From: Candidatus Saccharimonadota bacterium
Lineage (GTDB): Bacteria; Patescibacteriota; Patescibacteriia; 2-12-FULL-60-25
Assembly (NCBI GenBank): GCA_963718585.1
Contig: OY970357.1
Coordinates: 90,001-122,000 of the forward strand
Direction of reading: 5' to 3'
DNA length: 32,000 nt
Part shown: positions 2,743 to 29,841 of the stretch, in pieces
How positions within the stretch are numbered: position 1 is the stretch's first letter
How the letters are laid out: the number at the start of each line of letters is the position of its first letter
The notes under the pieces: generated by a model
Seen by the model: only the letters and a program-made list of their open reading frames with translations
What the model was told of the DNA's origin: nothing
Database searches by the model: none
Position numbers and translations under genes: made by a program

Positions 2743-3498
2743 TCAGTGATCCGTATTGCGGATATGGGCGAAGAAGATGACGGCCCAGCGATCCTCCGCG
2801 GTCCCGTTCGTGGGGTCCACGACGTCGTGGACCAGGGCGGGAATGAGTCCGCGCGTGAGACGCTCCAGTTTTTGCCCTGCGAAGAGCAATGCTTCGTCCG
2901 GGACGGAACGGAATGATTCACGTGTGTCGCCGAGGCGGAGCGCCGGACGGCTTTCCGCGATCTGGAGGGTCAGACACGCACGGTCCGTATGGGCGCGCGC
3001 GATGTGAATTCCACGGTCGTAGCGTAGGATCCGGAGGACGTGGAGATCACCGGCGTCGCGGATACGTCGGACGAGGTCATGGCCGGGGAGCGCACCATCG
3101 AAGGCGTCGGCGAACGTGAGCGCCTGCTCAAGGCAGATCGCGTGGAGACGCGTGCAGACGGTGAGCAGATCCTCATGGGCCGAGGTGTGGACACTGTAGT
3201 CGGCAAGATGCGAGCGCAGGCTTGATCGATAGTGGAAGAGCCACTTGTCGTCTTTGTCTTCTCCTCCGCTACTGGTCTTGCGGATCAAGCCATCGTCCGG
3301 CTCATCATCCGGTTCGCCATCGCGGCTGATCTCGAGAGTCCATCGATCACGATCGGGATCCTCGATGAGTCGGCGAATGCCGGTGACGGCTTCGCGCGCA
3401 AGGCTCGAACTGACAAGCGGGACGTTGGTGCGCCCGCGGCGGATGAACTCGGCCGCTTGGGGGCCGAGATCGCCTTCTTCTGACGGGATGCAGAACAT
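2743..3498 (-). CDS. 2OG-Fe(II) oxygenase superfamily protein (isopenicillin-N-synthase-like)
   Basis: HxD...H facial triad candidates (AHTDRACLTLQ and ALVHDVV) with an RWAVIFFAH C-terminal strand. I chose the MFCIPSEEG ATG (3498) as the start because GGAGG lies 7 nt upstream. Confidence 0.6.
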   Translation of the reverse strand: MFCIPSEEGDLGPQAAEFIRRGRTNVPLVSSSLAREAVTGIRRLIEDPDRDRWTLEISRDGEPDDEPDDGLIRKTSSGGEDKDDKWLFHYRSSLRSHLADYSVHTSAHEDLLTVCTRLHAICLEQALTFADAFDGALPGHDLVRRIRDAGDLHVLRILRYDRGIHIARAHTDRACLTLQIAESRPALRLGDTRESFRSVPDEALLFAGQKLERLTRGLIPALVHDVVDPTNGTAEDRWAVIFFAHIRNTDH

Positions 3499-3637
3499 CT
3501 CTGACCTCCAGGGTGAAAGGGCTCCCAGTAGTATGGGAGCCCTGCACGCGATGGGCAAATGGTGACGAGGTGCGTCTTGACCGACATCCGAAAATAGCGC
3601 ATCATCACGGGGCGATTGACCCTCCTAACAGGAGGGT

Positions 3638-3738
3638 TCGAGCGAAACGAGGTTGCGGAGCGTAGCGGAGCAAAACGCAGGCGTCGCGCAGACCCAAGTG
3701 AAGCCGCATCAGCGGATGAACGGGTGGTCAACGCGACC
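3638..3738 (+). repeat. tRNA-leader element, copy A (upstream of tRNA-Leu)
   Basis: Shares the exact blocks GTCGCGCAGACCCAAGTGA and GAACGGGTGGTCAACGCGAC with copy B (28462-28562). An internal hairpin is present, and the element ends 11 nt before the tRNA 5' end. Confidence 0.8.
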
Positions 3739-3748
3739 AGCCGAGTAC

Positions 3749-3817
<69 letters not shown>

Positions 3818-3835
<18 letters not shown>

Positions 3836-3914
3836 CATCAAAAAACCCCGACAGGGGTTTTTTGATGTGGAGAGACGAGAACGGGAAAGGGTGAAAACGG
3901 AAGTTTTCACATGC
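3818..3914 (+). repeat. 97-nt direct repeat, copy 1 (last 18 nt of tRNA-Leu + terminator + start of trailer core)
   Basis: Aligns ungapped with 3979-4075 with 4 mismatched positions. The period is 161 nt. Confidence 0.9.
3836..3867. terminator. Terminator hairpin directly abutting the tRNA-Leu CCA
   Basis: Perfect 14-bp stem CATCAAAAAACCCC-GACA-GGGGTTTTTTGATG. A/T runs inside the stem would let it work in both orientations. Confidence 0.7.
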
Positions 3915-3978
3915 GGAGGAAGGTCTGCGGAAACCCGAAGGTTTCCGCAAAGGCGCGCGAATGCGCGTCCGGTGAGAT

Positions 3979-4075
3979 GTCTCTCCCCGCCCACCACATC
4001 AAAAAACCCCGACAGGGGTTTTTGATTGTGGAGAGACGGGAACGGGAAAGGGTGAAAACGGAAGTTTTCACATGC
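3979..4075 (+). repeat. 97-nt direct repeat, copy 2 (orphan tRNA-Leu 3' fragment + terminator + trailer core)
   Basis: GTCTCTCCCCGCCCACCA (3979-3996) is identical to the tRNA-Leu 3' end. A near-identical terminator and the GGAGAGACGGGAACGGGAAAGGGTGAAAACGGAAGTTTTCAC segment follow. Confidence 0.9.
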
Positions 4076-4601: not shown

Positions 4602-6464
4602 TCATTTCCATCGCCAGCCGGAATTCGTATACCAGCTCATGAGGCCGCCGAGGCGATCCGCCGGAGAGCTGATCAAAAGATGGTCTTGTACGCCTTTGAT
4701 GCCGGTCGCGACGATCTCATGGTGCATGGGTCGGAGGAGGAAGACGGCTGGAACGTCGTTCAGGATCGCGGCGCTCGCAGTTTGGCGGGCTTCTATGATG
4801 GCGTCGGTCGTTGTCGCGTCGCGGGAGGCTTCAAGAGCATCGTCGACGGTACGGTCTACGAGCGACGAGAAGTTATATCCGCGGTCAATGGCCTGCCCGC
4901 TCCACCAGAAGGGGAAGAGGTCCTGTGTCGGGCCAAGATAGACATTCAATAGGATGATCTGACCGTCACGATCTCTCGTTGCCTTACGGAGGAGGTCCTC
5001 GGTCGACAGGGTCTCGATGTCGACCTTCGCGCCGATGAGCGACCATTGACGTTTCAGCCGATCCGCGACGGTCAGGAGATCCGGTTCGTCCGCGACCGAG
5101 ATCGTCAGGCTCAATTCCGTCGAACTGGCTGTCGCGATCGGCGCTGTGCTCGAAGATGAGGTGTCCTTCGCTCCGCTCTTCGCGATCCGGATGTTCCCAT
5201 TCTGCGGAAGGACCCATCCATCATTTTCCAAGAGCGTGCGCGCACGGTCGACGTCCATGCCGGTCGTCGTCGTGTCGAGGAATGGGTACGGCCCCATCAC
5301 CGGTGTCGCGCCGCCGCCAAGGGCGTCGACGAGGTCTGGGCGATCTACAGCAAGGGAAAGGGCCGTTCGGACGTCCTTGTCTTTGAGCGTGCCGTCTTTG
5401 AGATCGAAGAACGCGACCGTCTCTTCCGGCAGTTCGAGCTTGAGGTCATGTGCGCGCGATGCAGATTCGGCCTTTTGTGCATCTGCCGTCGGAACGAAGG
5501 CGGCGCCTTCGACGAGGTCGGCCTTGGCTGCGTCGACGGCGGATTGGCGATCCGGATAGAACTGGAAGACCACGGTCTTGAGATAGGGGGCGAATCCGTA
5601 ATACCGATCGAATCGTTCCAAGGTATAGGAATGGATGTTGCCGTTATTGTCACGCAGAAAGGATTTGACGTGATACGGCCCCGAACCGATGGGTTTGAGA
5701 TTGAGGTCAGAGACACGCGCGTTCGCGGCAGAGACATCCTCCCAGAGGTGCGCCGGCAGGATACCGAAGGTCAGGGAGGAGAGGATCTGCGCATCTGGTC
5801 GGTCCAGCGTGAAGATGACGGTGTCATCACCTTGTGTCGAGACGGTCACGCCATGGAATTCCGCGGCGAGCGGACTCTTCCGCGCAGGATCCATCAGGCT
5901 GTCGAACGTGAATCGGACATCATCGGCCGTCAGGAGCTGTCCGTCATGGAAATAGACGTCGGGTCGCAGGTGGATCGTCAGCGTCTTCCGGTCATCAGAC
6001 CACTCATACGATTGGGCGATGTCCGGGATCGGGTTCAGTCCATCCATCCGGAAGAGTCCGGAGTAGACCAGGCGGACCAGGTCGGCGTCCACGTCATTTG
6101 CCGGTGCGTCGAGCGGATTGATGAACTTCGGTTGTCCGATCAACGCTTCGCTATAGGCGCCTCCGACGACCGGAACGTTCACGATGTGCCCTTTGGCGAA
6201 GACGAACCCTGCGGTTCCGAGAGCGATGACCGCGATCAGACAGGCGATGACGAGAAGTCTTCGCTCTGATGGATCGAAGACGCGTAGGGCGTAGCGGAAT
6301 TGTCGATAGCGGGGGAGACGTTGTGGCTCCGTGACCGCGATGACGAGCGCGTGGTCATGCCCGACCTCCGGTGGGTGTTCCTCGTTCACCTCAGACGATG
6401 GCAGCCAAAAGAACACCCGTTGGAGCGTGCGTCGGATCCGGCTGATGAGAGTAGAGGGATTCAT
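4602..6464 (-). CDS. ABC-transporter family-5 (peptide/nickel type) substrate-binding protein, N-terminally membrane anchored
   Basis: 620 aa with one TM helix (LLVIACLIAVIALGTAGFVFA) followed by an SBP_bac_5-like body. No permease or ATPase genes are adjacent. Confidence 0.7.
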   Translation of the reverse strand: MNPSTLISRIRRTLQRVFFWLPSSEVNEEHPPEVGHDHALVIAVTEPQRLPRYRQFRYALRVFDPSERRLLVIACLIAVIALGTAGFVFAKGHIVNVPVVGGAYSEALIGQPKFINPLDAPANDVDADLVRLVYSGLFRMDGLNPIPDIAQSYEWSDDRKTLTIHLRPDVYFHDGQLLTADDVRFTFDSLMDPARKSPLAAEFHGVTVSTQGDDTVIFTLDRPDAQILSSLTFGILPAHLWEDVSAANARVSDLNLKPIGSGPYHVKSFLRDNNGNIHSYTLERFDRYYGFAPYLKTVVFQFYPDRQSAVDAAKADLVEGAAFVPTADAQKAESASRAHDLKLELPEETVAFFDLKDGTLKDKDVRTALSLAVDRPDLVDALGGGATPVMGPYPFLDTTTTGMDVDRARTLLENDGWVLPQNGNIRIAKSGAKDTSSSSTAPIATASSTELSLTISVADEPDLLTVADRLKRQWSLIGAKVDIETLSTEDLLRKATRDRDGQIILLNVYLGPTQDLFPFWWSGQAIDRGYNFSSLVDRTVDDALEASRDATTTDAIIEARQTASAAILNDVPAVFLLRPMHHEIVATGIKGVQDHLLISSPADRLGGLMSWYTNSGWRWK

Positions 6465-18053: not shown

Positions 18054-18128
18054 TGGTAGGCCCGGCTGGGATCGAACCAGCGACCGGGTGTGTATAAGAC
18101 ACCTGCTCTACCACTGAGCTACGGGCCT
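18054..18128 (-). tRNA. tRNA-Ile with UAU anticodon (AUA decoder), CCA encoded
   Basis: AGGCCCG/TA/GCTC-AGTGGTA-GAGC/A/GGTGT-CTTATAC-ACACC/CGGTC/GCTGG-TTCGATC-CCAGC/CGGGCCT-A-CCA. All stems are Watson-Crick, and loop positions 34-36 read TAT. Confidence 0.85.
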
Positions 18129-27424: not shown

Positions 27425-27437
27425 TGGCGGGCGTGCC
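27425..27437 (-). repeat. Orphan tRNA-Ile(GAU) 3'-end-like fragment
   Basis: Minus strand GGCACGCCCGCCA versus the tRNA 3' end GGCACGCCCACCA (12/13 identical). It sits immediately before the terminator hairpin. Confidence 0.55.
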
Positions 27438-27444
27438 CCGCACG

Positions 27445-27511
27445 GCGTATTGCGCTGACCACCCATTCTCTGCCTGCGGCGGATCACTTGGGTCTGTGCG
27501 ACGCCTGCGCT
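27445..27511 (-). repeat. tRNA-leader element, copy D (orphan, not followed by an intact tRNA)
   Basis: The minus strand shares the 25-nt block CAGACCCAAGTGATCCGCCGCAGGC with copy B, plus GAATGGGTGGTC. Confidence 0.8.
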
Positions 27512-27566
27512 CAGTTTGCCGTACAAACTGGTAAACGAGCCGGAGGAAACCGTTCAGCTCATATGC

Positions 27567-27578
27567 GTTCGAGTCCAG
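27567..27578 (-). repeat. Inverted copy of the tRNA-Ile(GAU) T-loop/T-stem
   Basis: Plus strand GTTCGAGTCCAG is identical to the tRNA sense sequence although the tRNA is on the minus strand. It is therefore an inverted repeat, located just past the tRNA terminator. Confidence 0.7.
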
Positions 27579-27619: not shown

Positions 27620-27696
27620 TGGTGGGCGTGCCTGGACTCGAACCAGGGACCTTCACATTATCAGTGTGACGCTCTAACCACCTGAGCTACACGCCC
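27620..27696 (-). tRNA. tRNA-Ile (anticodon GAU), CCA encoded
   Basis: GGGCGTG/TA/GCTC-AGGTGGTTA-GAGC/G/TCACA-CTGATAA-TGTGA/AGGTC/CCTGG-TTCGAGT-CCAGG/CACGCCC-A-CCA. Confidence 0.92.
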
Positions 27697-27704
27697 TTAC
27701 TCGC

Positions 27705-27808
27705 CTAGACGAGCTTCGCTCCATTCTCCGCCAGAGGCGGATCACTTCGCCTACGCTCGTCGGCTCCGTTTTGCTCGCCTGCGGCTCGTAAGCTCACTTC
27801 GTTCGCAG
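27705..27808 (-). repeat. tRNA-leader element, copy C (upstream of tRNA-Ile GAU)
   Basis: The minus strand has GAGCAAAACGGAG, AAGTGATCCGCC-TCT-GGCGGAGAA, and an outer stem GACGAGC...GCTCGTC that replaces the GTCGCG...CGCGAC stem of copies A and B. Confidence 0.7.
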
Positions 27809-27850
27809 AAGCACGGAATATCGAGGCGGAACGATCGAAATCGTGCCGAT

Positions 27851-28420: not shown

Positions 28421-28461
28421 TCCATCCCCGTTCGTCAGTAGGCGAACATGTCCGCTGTTCT

Positions 28462-28562
28462 CTGCGAGCGTAGCGAGCTTGCGTAGCGAAGCGGAGCAAA
28501 GCGCAGATGTCGCGCAGACCCAAGTGATCCGCCGCAGGCGGAGAACGGGTGGTCAACGCGAC
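28462..28562 (+). repeat. tRNA-leader element, copy B (upstream of tRNA-Phe)
   Basis: See copy A. It has the internal hairpin TCCGCC-GCA-GGCGGA and the outer stem GTCGCG...CGCGAC, and it ends 11 nt before the tRNA 5' end. Confidence 0.8.
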
Positions 28563-28573
28563 AGATCAAGCAT

Positions 28574-28648
28574 GCCGAGGTAGCTCAGTGGTAGAGCGAA
28601 GGACTGAAAATCCTTGCGTCGCCAGTTCGATCCTGGCCCTCGGCACCA
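28574..28648 (+). tRNA. tRNA-Phe (anticodon GAA), CCA encoded
   Basis: GCCGAGG/TA/GCTC-AGTGGTA-GAGC/G/AAGGA-CTGAAAA-TCCTT/GCGTC/GCCAG-TTCGATC-CTGGC/CCTCGGC-A-CCA. Confidence 0.92.
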
Positions 28649-28696: not shown

Positions 28697-28709
28697 GCCA
28701 GGATCGAAC
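28697..28709 (+). repeat. Inverted copy of the tRNA-Phe T-loop/T-stem
   Basis: GCCAGGATCGAAC is the exact reverse complement of the tRNA-Phe segment GTTCGATCCTGGC. It lies 12 nt past the terminator. Confidence 0.7.
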
Positions 28710-29267: not shown

Positions 29268-29290
29268 GCCCCGGTATCCCGGGGCTTTTT
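29268..29290 (+). terminator. Intrinsic terminator
   Basis: GCCCCGG-TATC-CCGGGGC followed by TTTTT. Confidence 0.7.
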
Positions 29291-29295
29291 CATAC

Positions 29296-29671
29296 GAAAA
29301 AGCACCGCGAGGGTGCTCTTTCACTTGGAGCGGGTAGCGGGAGATCTCCGTCGTCGCTTAGCTCCTCCCACGAAAACCTTCGGGTTTTCGTGTGCTTTCC
29401 TCAGAATGTGAAACCTTCCGGTTTCACCCTTCCCCGGTTCGACTCCCGCATCTGTCTGTTCAAATGAAAAAGCACCGCGAGGGTGCTCTTTCACTTGGAG
29501 CGGGTAGCGGGAGATCTCCCGCGGCCTTCGGCCTTCTGGGAACCCATCGGTTCCCAGCTCACTCCGTTCGCTCCCTCCGCCATGGGGAACTCCCGTTCCC
29601 CAACGCCCTTCCCGTTCGACTCATCCACCATCAGTCCAAAAACAAATAGACCCGTTGGGTCCACTTGTTTT
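29296..29671 (-). repeat. tRNA-Gly trailer array: two ~170-nt structured units, each ending in an orphan tRNA-Gly 3' fragment plus terminator
   Basis: Perfect 54-nt repeat at 29296-29349 and 29466-29519. The 19-nt TTGGAGCGGGTAGCGGGAG occurs three times (29325, 29495, 29671), the third being the real tRNA 3' end. Inverted T-arm copies lie at 29436-29449 (14/14) and 29613-29626 (partial). Confidence 0.9.
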
Positions 29672-29746
29672 TGGAGCGGGTAGCGGGAGTCGAACCCGCC
29701 TCTCAACCTTGGAAGGGTCGCATAATAGCCGCTATACGATACCCGC
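29672..29746 (-). tRNA. tRNA-Gly (anticodon UCC), CCA encoded
   Basis: GCGGGTA/TC/GTAT-AGCGGCTA-TTAT.../anticodon loop CTTCCAA/T-arm GCGGG-TTCGACT-CCCGC/TACCCGC-T-CCA. It closely resembles the E. coli tRNA-Gly(UCC) layout. Confidence 0.9.
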
Positions 29747-29760
29747 GAAAATGTGGCCGC

Positions 29761-29789
29761 ATCGTAGCGGAATCGGGTTCAGCTGACAA
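29761..29789 (-). promoter_or_regulatory. Promoter TTGTCA-N17-TACGAT for tRNA-Gly
   Basis: Exact 17-nt spacer on the minus strand. The -10 box ends 14 nt before the mature 5' end. Confidence 0.55.
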
Positions 29790-29798
29790 TCCTCCGTC

Positions 29799-29827
29799 TC
29801 GACAAGCGAAGAATCCTTCCTTATGAT
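29799..29827 (+). promoter_or_regulatory. Promoter TCGACA-N17-TATGAT for tRNA-Pro
   Basis: Exact 17-nt spacer. The -10 box ends 14 nt before the mature 5' end. It is divergent from the tRNA-Gly promoter. Confidence 0.55.
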
Positions 29828-29841
29828 GCGTGCGCTGCCCT

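Follow-up and report, generated by a model that had tools for sequence, protein, structure and literature searches.

Introduction

tRNA genes are classic landing pads for mobile DNA, and every user of them that we know of brings or borrows an integrase tuned to one tRNA. In the ultra-small bacteria of the candidate phyla radiation (CPR), mobile elements are, to our knowledge, barely known. Here, a short hairpin-rich unit is described that lies behind a tRNA-Leu and a tRNA-Gly gene in 32,000 nt of a Candidatus Saccharimonadota genome (contig OY970357.1, positions 90,001 to 122,000; this whole stretch is called the window below). The unit consists of a conserved core with three hairpins, preceded by an inverted copy (IR_L) and followed by a direct copy (IR_R) of the 3' part of the host tRNA. 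Among described systems, it comes closest to tRNA-targeting integrative elements and folded single-strand recombination sites, and it shows the full set of defining features of none of them. The contig with the window is 1.08 Mb in length; this size, the GC content of the window (58.7%) and the genes present hint that it may be an entire CPR genome.

Islands and phages that integrate into tRNA genes with a tyrosine integrase (T-loop sublocation), as well as cis-mobilizable elements (CIMEs), resemble the unit in the direct repeat of the tRNA 3' part from the T-loop, in leaving the tRNA intact, in tandem stacking and in cargo placed beside the tRNA. CIMEs need their enzyme in trans, as is proposed here. 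In Ms6 (PMC1762012), an attP core matched to another tRNA T-loop provides a precedent for retargeting. Compared with these elements, the unit is only ~130-170 nt in total, with no integrase found nearby, and it has a conserved three-hairpin core and an inverted target copy starting exactly at G53; moreover, one nearly invariant core serves at least 11 tRNA species. It also differs from a miniature inverted-repeat transposable element (MITE), since its inverted repeats are copies of the host tRNA and vary from locus to locus, every copy is linked to a tRNA and a short target-site duplication is missing.

In the CTX attP(+) site (integrative mobile elements exploiting Xer, IMEX) and the integron attC site, one strand folds into a target-mimicking duplex with bulges or mismatches. 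Insertion re-creates the target, which leads to arrays, and the element needs no excision enzyme. The unit shares with both the inverted and direct target copies, ~90-115 nt apart at one end of the insert, and its imperfect inverted repeat is predicted to fold in one strand into a partner-like duplex. The target is, in contrast, a tRNA gene rather than dif or attI, and the folded duplex mimics the T-loop-to-acceptor side only. The centre of the unit is conserved and its arms are variable, the opposite of attC. Neither attC core sites (consensus taken as RYYYAAC / GTTRRRY) nor dif-like arms were found: the AAC/GTT triplets alone coincide, and the arms are tRNA sequence.

The IS91 family offers suggestive parallels: its target, GTTC/CTTG, or GTCC for IS1294b, adjoins an end (oriIS) with two subterminal palindromes, and it has a single-stranded circle as intermediate (PMC13181058). 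HUH transposons (IS91; IS200/IS605 with their palindrome-associated (PATE) and MITE derivatives) share with the unit a pair of subterminal hairpins at one end with a single one at the other, the strand polarity and the lack of terminal inverted repeats of their own. In the unit, the complement of the core adjoins 5'-GTTC in most units, GTCC in contig L019 and TGCG in L009 and L012. Since the boundary follows the T-loop position though the tetranucleotide differs, membership in the IS91 family is unsupported. Unlike HUH transposons, the unit has no conserved cleavage tetranucleotide at its other end and carries long target-derived repeats on both sides. No Y2 HUH transposase gene was present near the loci, and blastn against plasmid and phage collections gave no similar DNA.

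Finally, tRNA-like or minihelix RNAs (viral tRNA-like structures, mascRNA-type) share with the unit a predicted helix containing the tRNA T-stem/acceptor 3' strand and a single-stranded end (NCCA in the window). The unit, in contrast, copies the neighbouring tRNA instead of being a fixed mimic, has no D-arm or anticodon mimic, lacks CCA in most copies and sits behind a terminator. The bridge RNA of IS110, the tigRNA of TIGR systems and the omega-RNA of TnpB/IscB were also considered and rejected: their guides address adjacent half-sites or a single strand beside a protein gene, while the two copies in the unit are mutually complementary and no such gene is near.

Results and Discussion

Architecture of the Unit

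In every unit, the parts follow one order: tRNA, bidirectional terminator hairpin, IR_L, the linker GGGAAAGGG, hairpin 1, the linker CNUGCNGAGGAAAG, hairpin 2, a small variable hairpin, IR_R and a terminator. The conserved module is ~100 bases long and comprises the three hairpins. IR_L, of 9-21 nt, is the reverse complement of a stretch of the tRNA that starts at G53, where the T-loop begins, and runs outward through the 3' strand of the T-stem into a variable length of the acceptor. Its 3' end, ...GAAC, directly abuts the core (...GGAC where the loop has GTCC, ...GCA for tRNA-Glu). T-stems that contain G.U pairs tell the two strands apart: the tRNA of contig L015 has CTTGG where IR_L has CCTGG, and that of L020 has GCAGG where IR_L has ACAGG. 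In both cases IR_L carries the Watson-Crick complement of the 3' strand, which makes it a genuine reverse complement that does not copy the 5' strand of the T-stem. At tRNA-Glu, whose T-loop is non-palindromic, IR_L likewise contains the loop in inverted form. These two features, together with the reach of IR_L into the acceptor complement, ruled out that the unit is a partial tRNA duplicate with a T-loop insertion, in which IR_L would be a direct duplicate of the 5' strand of the T-arm. At 15 of 15 folded loci, one long predicted hairpin joins the terminator, IR_L and the tRNA portion from G53 onward, with G53:C as its outermost pair, or T54:A in the tRNA-Glu of L009.

The core has invariant purine-rich linkers (GGGAAAGGG and GAGGAAAG) and invariant loops (GGAA and CGAA/AGAA), and its stems covary. 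Over 17 units, 98.7% of the cells in hairpins 1 and 2 are paired and 11 of the 18 pairs have changed on both sides; none of 500 shuffles reached the observed values. Non-Watson-Crick cells on the tRNA-sense strand are four G.T and one A.C. The third hairpin is often a mini-hairpin of the GCGAAGC type, which we take to be a very stable DNA hairpin motif.

IR_R directly repeats the 3' strands of the T-stem and the acceptor and equals the last 9-18 nt of the tRNA in 14 of 15 units, while the host tRNAs score as normal tRNAs. It is preceded by G(T/G)GAGAT, able to pair with the T-loop complement through tandem G.A pairs; direct reading of the sequences gave one covariation in this IR_L:GTGAGAT pairing, in L020. 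In L015, L018, L019 and L022, a full T-loop and a 9-nt mini-hairpin precede IR_R instead. IR_L can pair both with IR_R and with the tRNA 3' part, and the predicted folds close either the unit or the terminator hairpin. The tRNA at the same locus matched better than every non-cognate tRNA in 14/15 units for IR_R and in 10/15 for IR_L, the ties being due to T-loops shared among tRNAs.

CCA occurs in IR_R solely in the window, where tRNA genes encode CCA, whereas in Candidatus Magasanikbacteria both the tRNA genes and IR_R are without it. IR_R thus follows the gene and was copied from DNA, not from mature tRNA. The complement of IR_R resembles an 18-nt primer-binding site in the window, and a retro-copy was therefore considered; it was ruled out, as the CPR copies have no CCA complement where the genes lack CCA. 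A small open reading frame (ORF) within the unit was likewise ruled out, since ATG is found in some copies only and the frame is not conserved. No promoter-like site was found inside the window units, which have symmetric terminators on both sides.

An earlier sequence-only reading had described the tRNA-Leu unit, its order of parts and its end-to-end alignment with one of the two tRNA-Gly units (unit A). All of this was reproduced, with 66-nt cores that are 82% alike in a repeat search of the window. The compensatory differences between them (A:U to C:G in hairpin 1, G:C to A:U in hairpin 2) and the pairings that close the units, 8 bp for Leu and 7 bp for Gly A, are correct too, while the end of unit A, placed at 29325, is in fact at 29326. 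The inverted 5' piece, described as a T-loop/T-stem copy, is present and reaches further, as the reverse complement of the tRNA 3' strand starting exactly at G53. That the ends follow the host tRNA, proposed from these two loci, holds and generalises to about 11 tRNA species in other genomes.

Distribution of the Family

Other copies were sought by pattern scans and by a covariance model, R1, built from 15 units. The hairpin 1 pattern retrieved the same architecture from four Candidatus Magasanikbacteria metagenome-assembled genomes (MAGs) and one record titled Gammaproteobacteria, and a looser pattern retrieved 10 further metagenome contigs, all 10 matches being true copies. The covariance model, which the sequence-only reading had called for together with a covariation test, recovered every unit and, in addition, a more divergent one behind a second tRNA on contig L017. 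In total, there are 17 distinct units: three full and one truncated are in the window, and the others are in Candidatus Magasanikbacteria MAGs and metagenome contigs. As that reading had expected, all copies found are tRNA-linked.

The hosts belong to at least 11 tRNA species, namely Leu, Gly(UCC) (three loci), Val, Glu, Arg, Trp, Gln(CUG), Gln(UUG), Met, Lys and Pro; for one unit, the host tRNA lies off the contig. All tRNA-Gly(UCC) genes in the data (3/3) bear a unit, while the majority of tRNA genes have none.

The architecture recurs in NCBI MAGs, JGI contigs and ENA contigs, and the truncated junction of the Leu locus was found again at the end of L001, a contig assembled independently from another data set. 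An assembly artefact, which would have undone the tandem arrangement, is therefore ruled out. The element is real and reproducible over independent assemblies, and its recurrence in 17 units goes far past what chance would give; its structure is statistically supported, and it is absent from the libraries searched. With Rfam 15, the window and 10 loci matched only tRNA families at the gathering threshold, and sub-threshold matches were at chance level. Phage and plasmid collections (blastn) and viral-contig collections contained no similar DNA. Five first-scan matches in viral contigs were to the short pattern only; the two inspected, L003 and L004, are mutually related and have neither the downstream core nor hairpin 2, and viral contigs were discarded as carriers. 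Full-text literature searches gave no description of such an element. Exact-protein look-ups for other strains of the window organism returned short Logan contigs alone, broken at repeats.

The record titled 'uncultured Gammaproteobacteria' (L009, CAZUFD010000001.1) has a promoter, tRNA-Glu, unit and upstream gene nearly identical to those of L012, from Candidatus Magasanikbacteria. Its title is probably a taxonomic mislabel of the MAG.

The tRNA-Leu and tRNA-Gly Loci of the Window

The host tRNA-Leu(CAG) lies at 3749-3835 (+) (ARAGORN and Rfam tRNA), with an encoded CCA and the T-arm GAGAG-TTCGAGT-CTCTC. It is followed by a symmetric, bidirectional terminator hairpin, CATCAAAAAACCCC-GACA-GGGGTTTTTTGATG (3836-3867, +), recognised by sequence, fold and inverted repeat. 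In the predicted fold, this terminator is the centre of one long palindrome made of tRNA G53..CCA, the terminator and IR_L. The whole unit spans 3869-3996 (+). Its IR_L, GGAGAGACGAGAAC (3869-3882, +), is the reverse complement of GTTCGAGTCTCTCC at 12 of 14 positions, and its GAAC end abuts the core; the match to the T-loop is imperfect, with GAGAAC in place of the exact complement, TCGAAC. The conserved core (3883-3978, +) scores 95.7 bits with R1 and is also defined by pair counts and folds. It contains the 5' linker GGGAAAGGG, hairpin 1 (GTGAAAAC-GGAA-GTTTTCAC, 3891-3910, +), the linker CATGCGGAGGAAGG, hairpin 2 (3926-3949, +) and the variable hairpin 3 (3954-3967, +), after which GGTGAGAT, containing GAGAT, leads up to IR_R. 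IR_R, GTCTCTCCCCGCCCACCA (3979-3996, +), directly repeats the final 18 nt of tRNA-Leu.

A second, incomplete copy follows directly at 3997-4075 (+), with the terminator at 3997-4028, IR_L at 4030-4043 and the core up to the end of hairpin 1 at 4044-4075 (42.6 bits). It is backed by a direct repeat of 97 nt with 96% identity and is cut off at CATGC, 7 nt ahead of the stop codon of a DUF1761 gene. This is the junction found again in L001.

The tRNA-Gly(UCC) gene (29672-29746, -; ARAGORN and Rfam) is followed by its own terminator (29636-29671) and then by units B and A. Unit B (~29622-29496, -) is a GC-rich divergent member, with an R1 score of 49.6 bits and a GC content of 0.65, and is also defined by its fold. 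Its IR_L is GAGTCGAAC (29622-29614, -); within the same limits, there follow the linker GGGAAGGG, hairpin 1 (TGGGGAAC-GGGA-GTTCCCCA), the linker CGGAGGGAG, hairpin 2 (TGGGAACC-GATG-GGTTCCCA), hairpin 3 (GGCC-GAA-GGCC) and GCGGGAGAT, and IR_R is at 29513-29496 (-). Unit A (29449-29326, -) scores 92.4 bits. It is made of IR_L GCGGGAGTCGAACC (29449-29436, -), a core (29435-29344, -) with hairpin 1 at 29427-29408, hairpin 2 at 29392-29369 and the mini-hairpin GCTAAGC, and IR_R CTCCCGCTACCCGCTCCA (29343-29326, -). The terminator behind unit A (29289-29325, -) is 97% identical to that between units B and A (29459-29495) and unlike the terminator of tRNA-Gly itself.

The tRNA-Gly(UCC) and tRNA-Pro(UGG) genes are divergent, and their 95-nt spacer (29747-29841) contains back-to-back promoter-like sites, TTGTCA-17-TACGAT and TCGACA-17-TATGAT. 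This tRNA-Pro(UGG) has a plain terminator and no unit, while the tRNA-Pro(UGG) in L020 carries one.

Signs of DNA-Level Dynamics

Units are stacked in tandem at the Gly locus (B, then A) and at the Leu locus (1.6 copies), and an additional IR_L is present beyond the terminator of the unit in L018 and L019. IR_L can also stand by itself. Behind the terminator of tRNA-Phe (28574-28648), the sequence GCCAGGATCGAAC (28697-28709, +) is an exact 13-nt reverse complement of the T-loop and the T-stem 3' strand, with neither core nor 3' fragment afterwards. The trailer of tRNA-Ile(GAU) (27620-27696) occupies 27425-27578 (-) and has a 12-nt IR_L, CTGGACTCGAAC (27578-27567), ~125 nt of other filling and the 3' fragment GGCACGCCCGCCA (27437-27425). 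From its sequence, this trailer is a different filling of the same frame of IR_L and 3' fragment. As a control, a search for inverted copies upstream of 30 tRNAs never gave more than 8 nt.

The filling behind tRNA-Ile(GAU) contains a copy of a repeat that is otherwise located upstream of tRNA genes (see below), then GGGC+ACGCCCGCCA, then a terminator. The GGGC+ACGCCCGCCA segment looks like a tRNA-Ile with positions ~5-65 deleted. A further tRNA-Ile, with anticodon UAU (18054-18128, -), is present beside tRNA-Ile(GAU) in the window and has neither a trailer unit nor an inverted T-loop copy.

Five of six truncations fall 0-4 nt from the IR_L/core junction (L019 twice, tRNA-Ile and tRNA-Phe of the window, and L018), which points to this junction as a preferred breakpoint. 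In the orthologous loci L009 and L012, the promoter and tRNA are identical and the core is ~95% identical, while the terminator is wholly different and similarity stops directly after IR_R. Their third hairpins differ by two double compensatory changes at the hairpin apex, which argues for continuing constraint. Overall, hairpin apexes seem to turn over much faster than the flanks.

Base composition also separates the units. The window has 58.7% GC and the Leu and Gly A cores only 53-54%, and these cores hardly differ from copies in loci with a GC content of 33-51%. Unit B has 65% GC, as if it had been resident for longer. The parallel A-to-G changes in both hairpins of unit B were considered as evidence for a shared binding protein and not used, since GC pressure explains them equally.

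Other DNA is found between tRNA and unit in L019 and L022. In L019, a GC-rich insert of ~600 nt (~2960-3560, -) separates tRNA-Lys from the unit. The insert carries a near-consensus promoter, TTGACA-N18-TAAATAAT, as well as a 64-aa arginine-rich ORF (MAGRARSRRIRRHRRNG...) after a Shine-Dalgarno sequence, with no match in Pfam, NCBIfam, PHROG or Rfam. In L022 (the same as L008), a two-gene cassette with its own promoter (4729-5346, -) lies behind tRNA-Gln(UUG) and is bounded by an additional 9-nt copy of the acceptor end, CTCGGAACA. Its 79-aa product gave a weak match to Arc/ribbon-helix-helix proteins (E 0.07) and its 124-aa product none, so that no family was assigned; judged by its sequence, the cassette resembles a toxin-antitoxin-like islet that integrated into the acceptor stem and is distinct from the hairpin unit.

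Proposed Nature of the Unit

At a probability of about 0.45, we tentatively favour the reading that the unit is not a gene product but belongs, as its cis-acting module, to a miniature integrative DNA cassette of the non-autonomous kind, whose folded single strand would mimic a tRNA gene and which would be mobilised in trans. One core behind at least 11 tRNA species with both ends rewritten for each host, AT-rich Leu and Gly A cores in a GC-richer window, and the lack of an internal promoter between bidirectional terminators are counted in its favour, as are the copying of IR_R from DNA, the nature of IR_L as a reverse complement of the tRNA 3' strand, and the near-complete pairing of hairpins 1 and 2 with changes on both sides. 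The arrays, junction-clustered truncations, IR_L-only sites, terminator replacement and cargo inserts point to dynamics at the DNA level. In addition, such a cassette would account for the inverted-plus-direct topology, known from CTX attP(+) at a prophage end, the stacking, the variable segment between tRNA and IR_L, the silent position insulated by terminators and the lack of a linked gene, as well as for the strand asymmetry of G.T over A.C cells, a weak point.

From these observations we infer mobility, a single-stranded intermediate, a position of strand exchange and an enzyme supplied in trans. Docking would take place at the T-loop/T-stem boundary of tRNA genes. The mobile form would be the tRNA 3' part, the terminator (or cargo), IR_L and the three-hairpin core, ~160 nt at the Leu locus. 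As a single strand of tRNA-sense polarity, it could pair IR_L with the tRNA 3' part and so present a duplex replica of the target from G53 outward, beside the conserved hairpins. A recombinase or transposase acting in trans would join this folded form to a tRNA gene near the T-loop, with 52|53 / GAAC|GGG and 60|61 as candidate exchange points. Both the 3' end and the terminator of the tRNA gene would stay complete, and IR_R would arise from the 3' part that was displaced or duplicated; it would re-create the docking site and allow stacking. A perfectly duplicated 3' part and terminator flank IR_L and core at both window loci, which would fit IR_R as a long target duplication.

Several observations weigh against this proposal. 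No integrase, HUH or other transposase gene was found in the surroundings of 14 loci (4-10 kb) or anywhere in the 32 kb of the window, the latter in agreement with the sequence-only reading; the neighbours are housekeeping genes (for example RecA, DprA, FtsK and EF-G), and no gene recurs among the loci. Viral contigs, phages and plasmids gave no copy, and neither an orthologous empty/filled pair nor an excised circle was seen, with L009 and L012 both carrying the unit. Copies in the same genome have diverged to a fair degree (82% identity between Leu and Gly A; 97 and 66 bits for the L017 units), which speaks against a recent burst. IR_L of L013 agrees with IR_R and not with the resident tRNA, which misfits the simplest integration scheme, and at the Gly locus the older-looking unit B is the tRNA-proximal one. 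The 4-vs-1 excess of G.T is not significant. Moreover, a functional RNA would just as typically show covarying stems together with invariant loops and linkers.

The sequence-only reading had offered both a miniature non-autonomous T-loop-aimed element mobilised in trans and a co-transcribed RNA presenting NCCA. The former is the better supported of the two, even though no recombinase, empty/filled pair or excised form was found. The RNA, weakened by the evidence below, is in our view rather unlikely. Transcribed by read-through or from an unrecognised promoter, it would form a three-hairpin junction closed by IR_L:IR_R, with the tRNA T-stem/acceptor strand as its 3' strand, and so mimic an acceptor/T minihelix. 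It would be processed by RNase P, RNase Z and the CCA-adding enzyme, and towards enzymes or toxins that recognise the 3' halves of tRNAs it would serve as decoy, sponge or regulator. The covarying stems, GNRA-type loops (GGAA) and purine-rich linkers would suit such a molecule, as would predicted folds in which IR_L:IR_R closes the junction (z-scores of -3 to -6), G.U pairs confined to the tRNA-sense strand, the covariation in the imperfect T-loop-complement/GTGAGAT pairing of L020 and the strong conservation over genomes of very different GC content. A strong terminator nevertheless stands between tRNA and unit at every locus, with no promoter-like site within units, and the CPR copies encode no NCCA, the Magasanikbacteria genes and 3' fragments both being without CCA. 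IR_L-only sites and stumps of IR_L+GGGA would make no sense as RNA, a generic minihelix role needs no ends copied from the neighbouring tRNA, and no Rfam family matches.

The remaining explanations keep the unit as DNA and do without present mobility. One is a structure that serves the host, inherited vertically and kept by selection, either as a decoy docking site or insulator that makes islands land behind the tRNA or as a stabiliser of termination or replication through tRNA loci. The stop of L009/L012 similarity exactly after IR_R, the unrelated islet integrated at tRNA-Gln in L022, the unit behind all three tRNA-Gly(UCC) genes and the housekeeping context agree with it; near-identical AT-rich cores in a 58.7% GC genome, tandem stacking, truncated copies and absence from most tRNA genes are left unexplained, and we consider it distinctly unlikely. 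We give still less credence to dead remnants, in which the bodies of tRNA-integrating phages or plasmids were deleted and attL, the att-proximal arm and attR are left without present activity. Such integrations classically leave the tRNA 3' end directly repeated, and a minimal attP has about the same size as the unit, yet 17 independent remnants would hardly all be trimmed to the same ~130 nt, and one arm for 11 tRNA cores is unlike the legacy of a single integrase lineage. The compensatory changes in hairpin 3 between the orthologues L009 and L012 imply continuing constraint, and no full-length relative was found in the viral, phage and plasmid collections. Both explanations are less able than the mobilised cassette to explain the compositional mismatch, the uniform trimming and the ongoing structural constraint.

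A bolder form of the cassette reading, which we hold to be fairly improbable, is a new class of programmable integrative element. A hairpin scaffold of ~100 nt would carry antisense and sense copies of the target, its folded strand would impersonate the double-stranded tRNA gene for a trans-acting, possibly host-encoded, recombinase or HUH enzyme, and rewriting of both copies, e.g., by hairpin-templated copying that halts at a nick 5' of G53, would retarget it to any tRNA. Such an element would be protein-less and homology-addressed, and at the tRNA genes of CPR bacteria it would build arrays and capture cargo.

If the unit is mobile, its choice of target would be written in the nucleic acid of the element and not in a protein, a compact and reprogrammable principle, and CPR bacteria would have a new route of gene flow. 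If it is an RNA instead, it would represent a new, widespread class of structured RNA that mimics tRNA 3' halves. Either reading would explain assembly breaks and duplicated tRNA ends in CPR genomes, and the covariance model is a ready marker for a census.

Repeats Upstream of tRNA Genes

A second repeat family of ~110 nt is located directly upstream of tRNA-Leu (3625-3748, +), tRNA-Phe (28450-28573, +) and tRNA-Ile(GAU) (27697-27815, -), with a further copy downstream of tRNA-Ile(GAU) (27438-27566, -). It is rich in GCGNAGC mini-hairpins and has the conserved block GCAGACCCAAGTGATCCGCCGCAGGCGGAGAACGGGTGGTCAACGCGAC, and its 3' portion is similar to the 5' portion of the trailer unit (GAGAACGGG...). 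Since the predicted promoter of tRNA-Leu (3577-3605) lies upstream of the repeat, the repeat may be a transcribed 5' leader.

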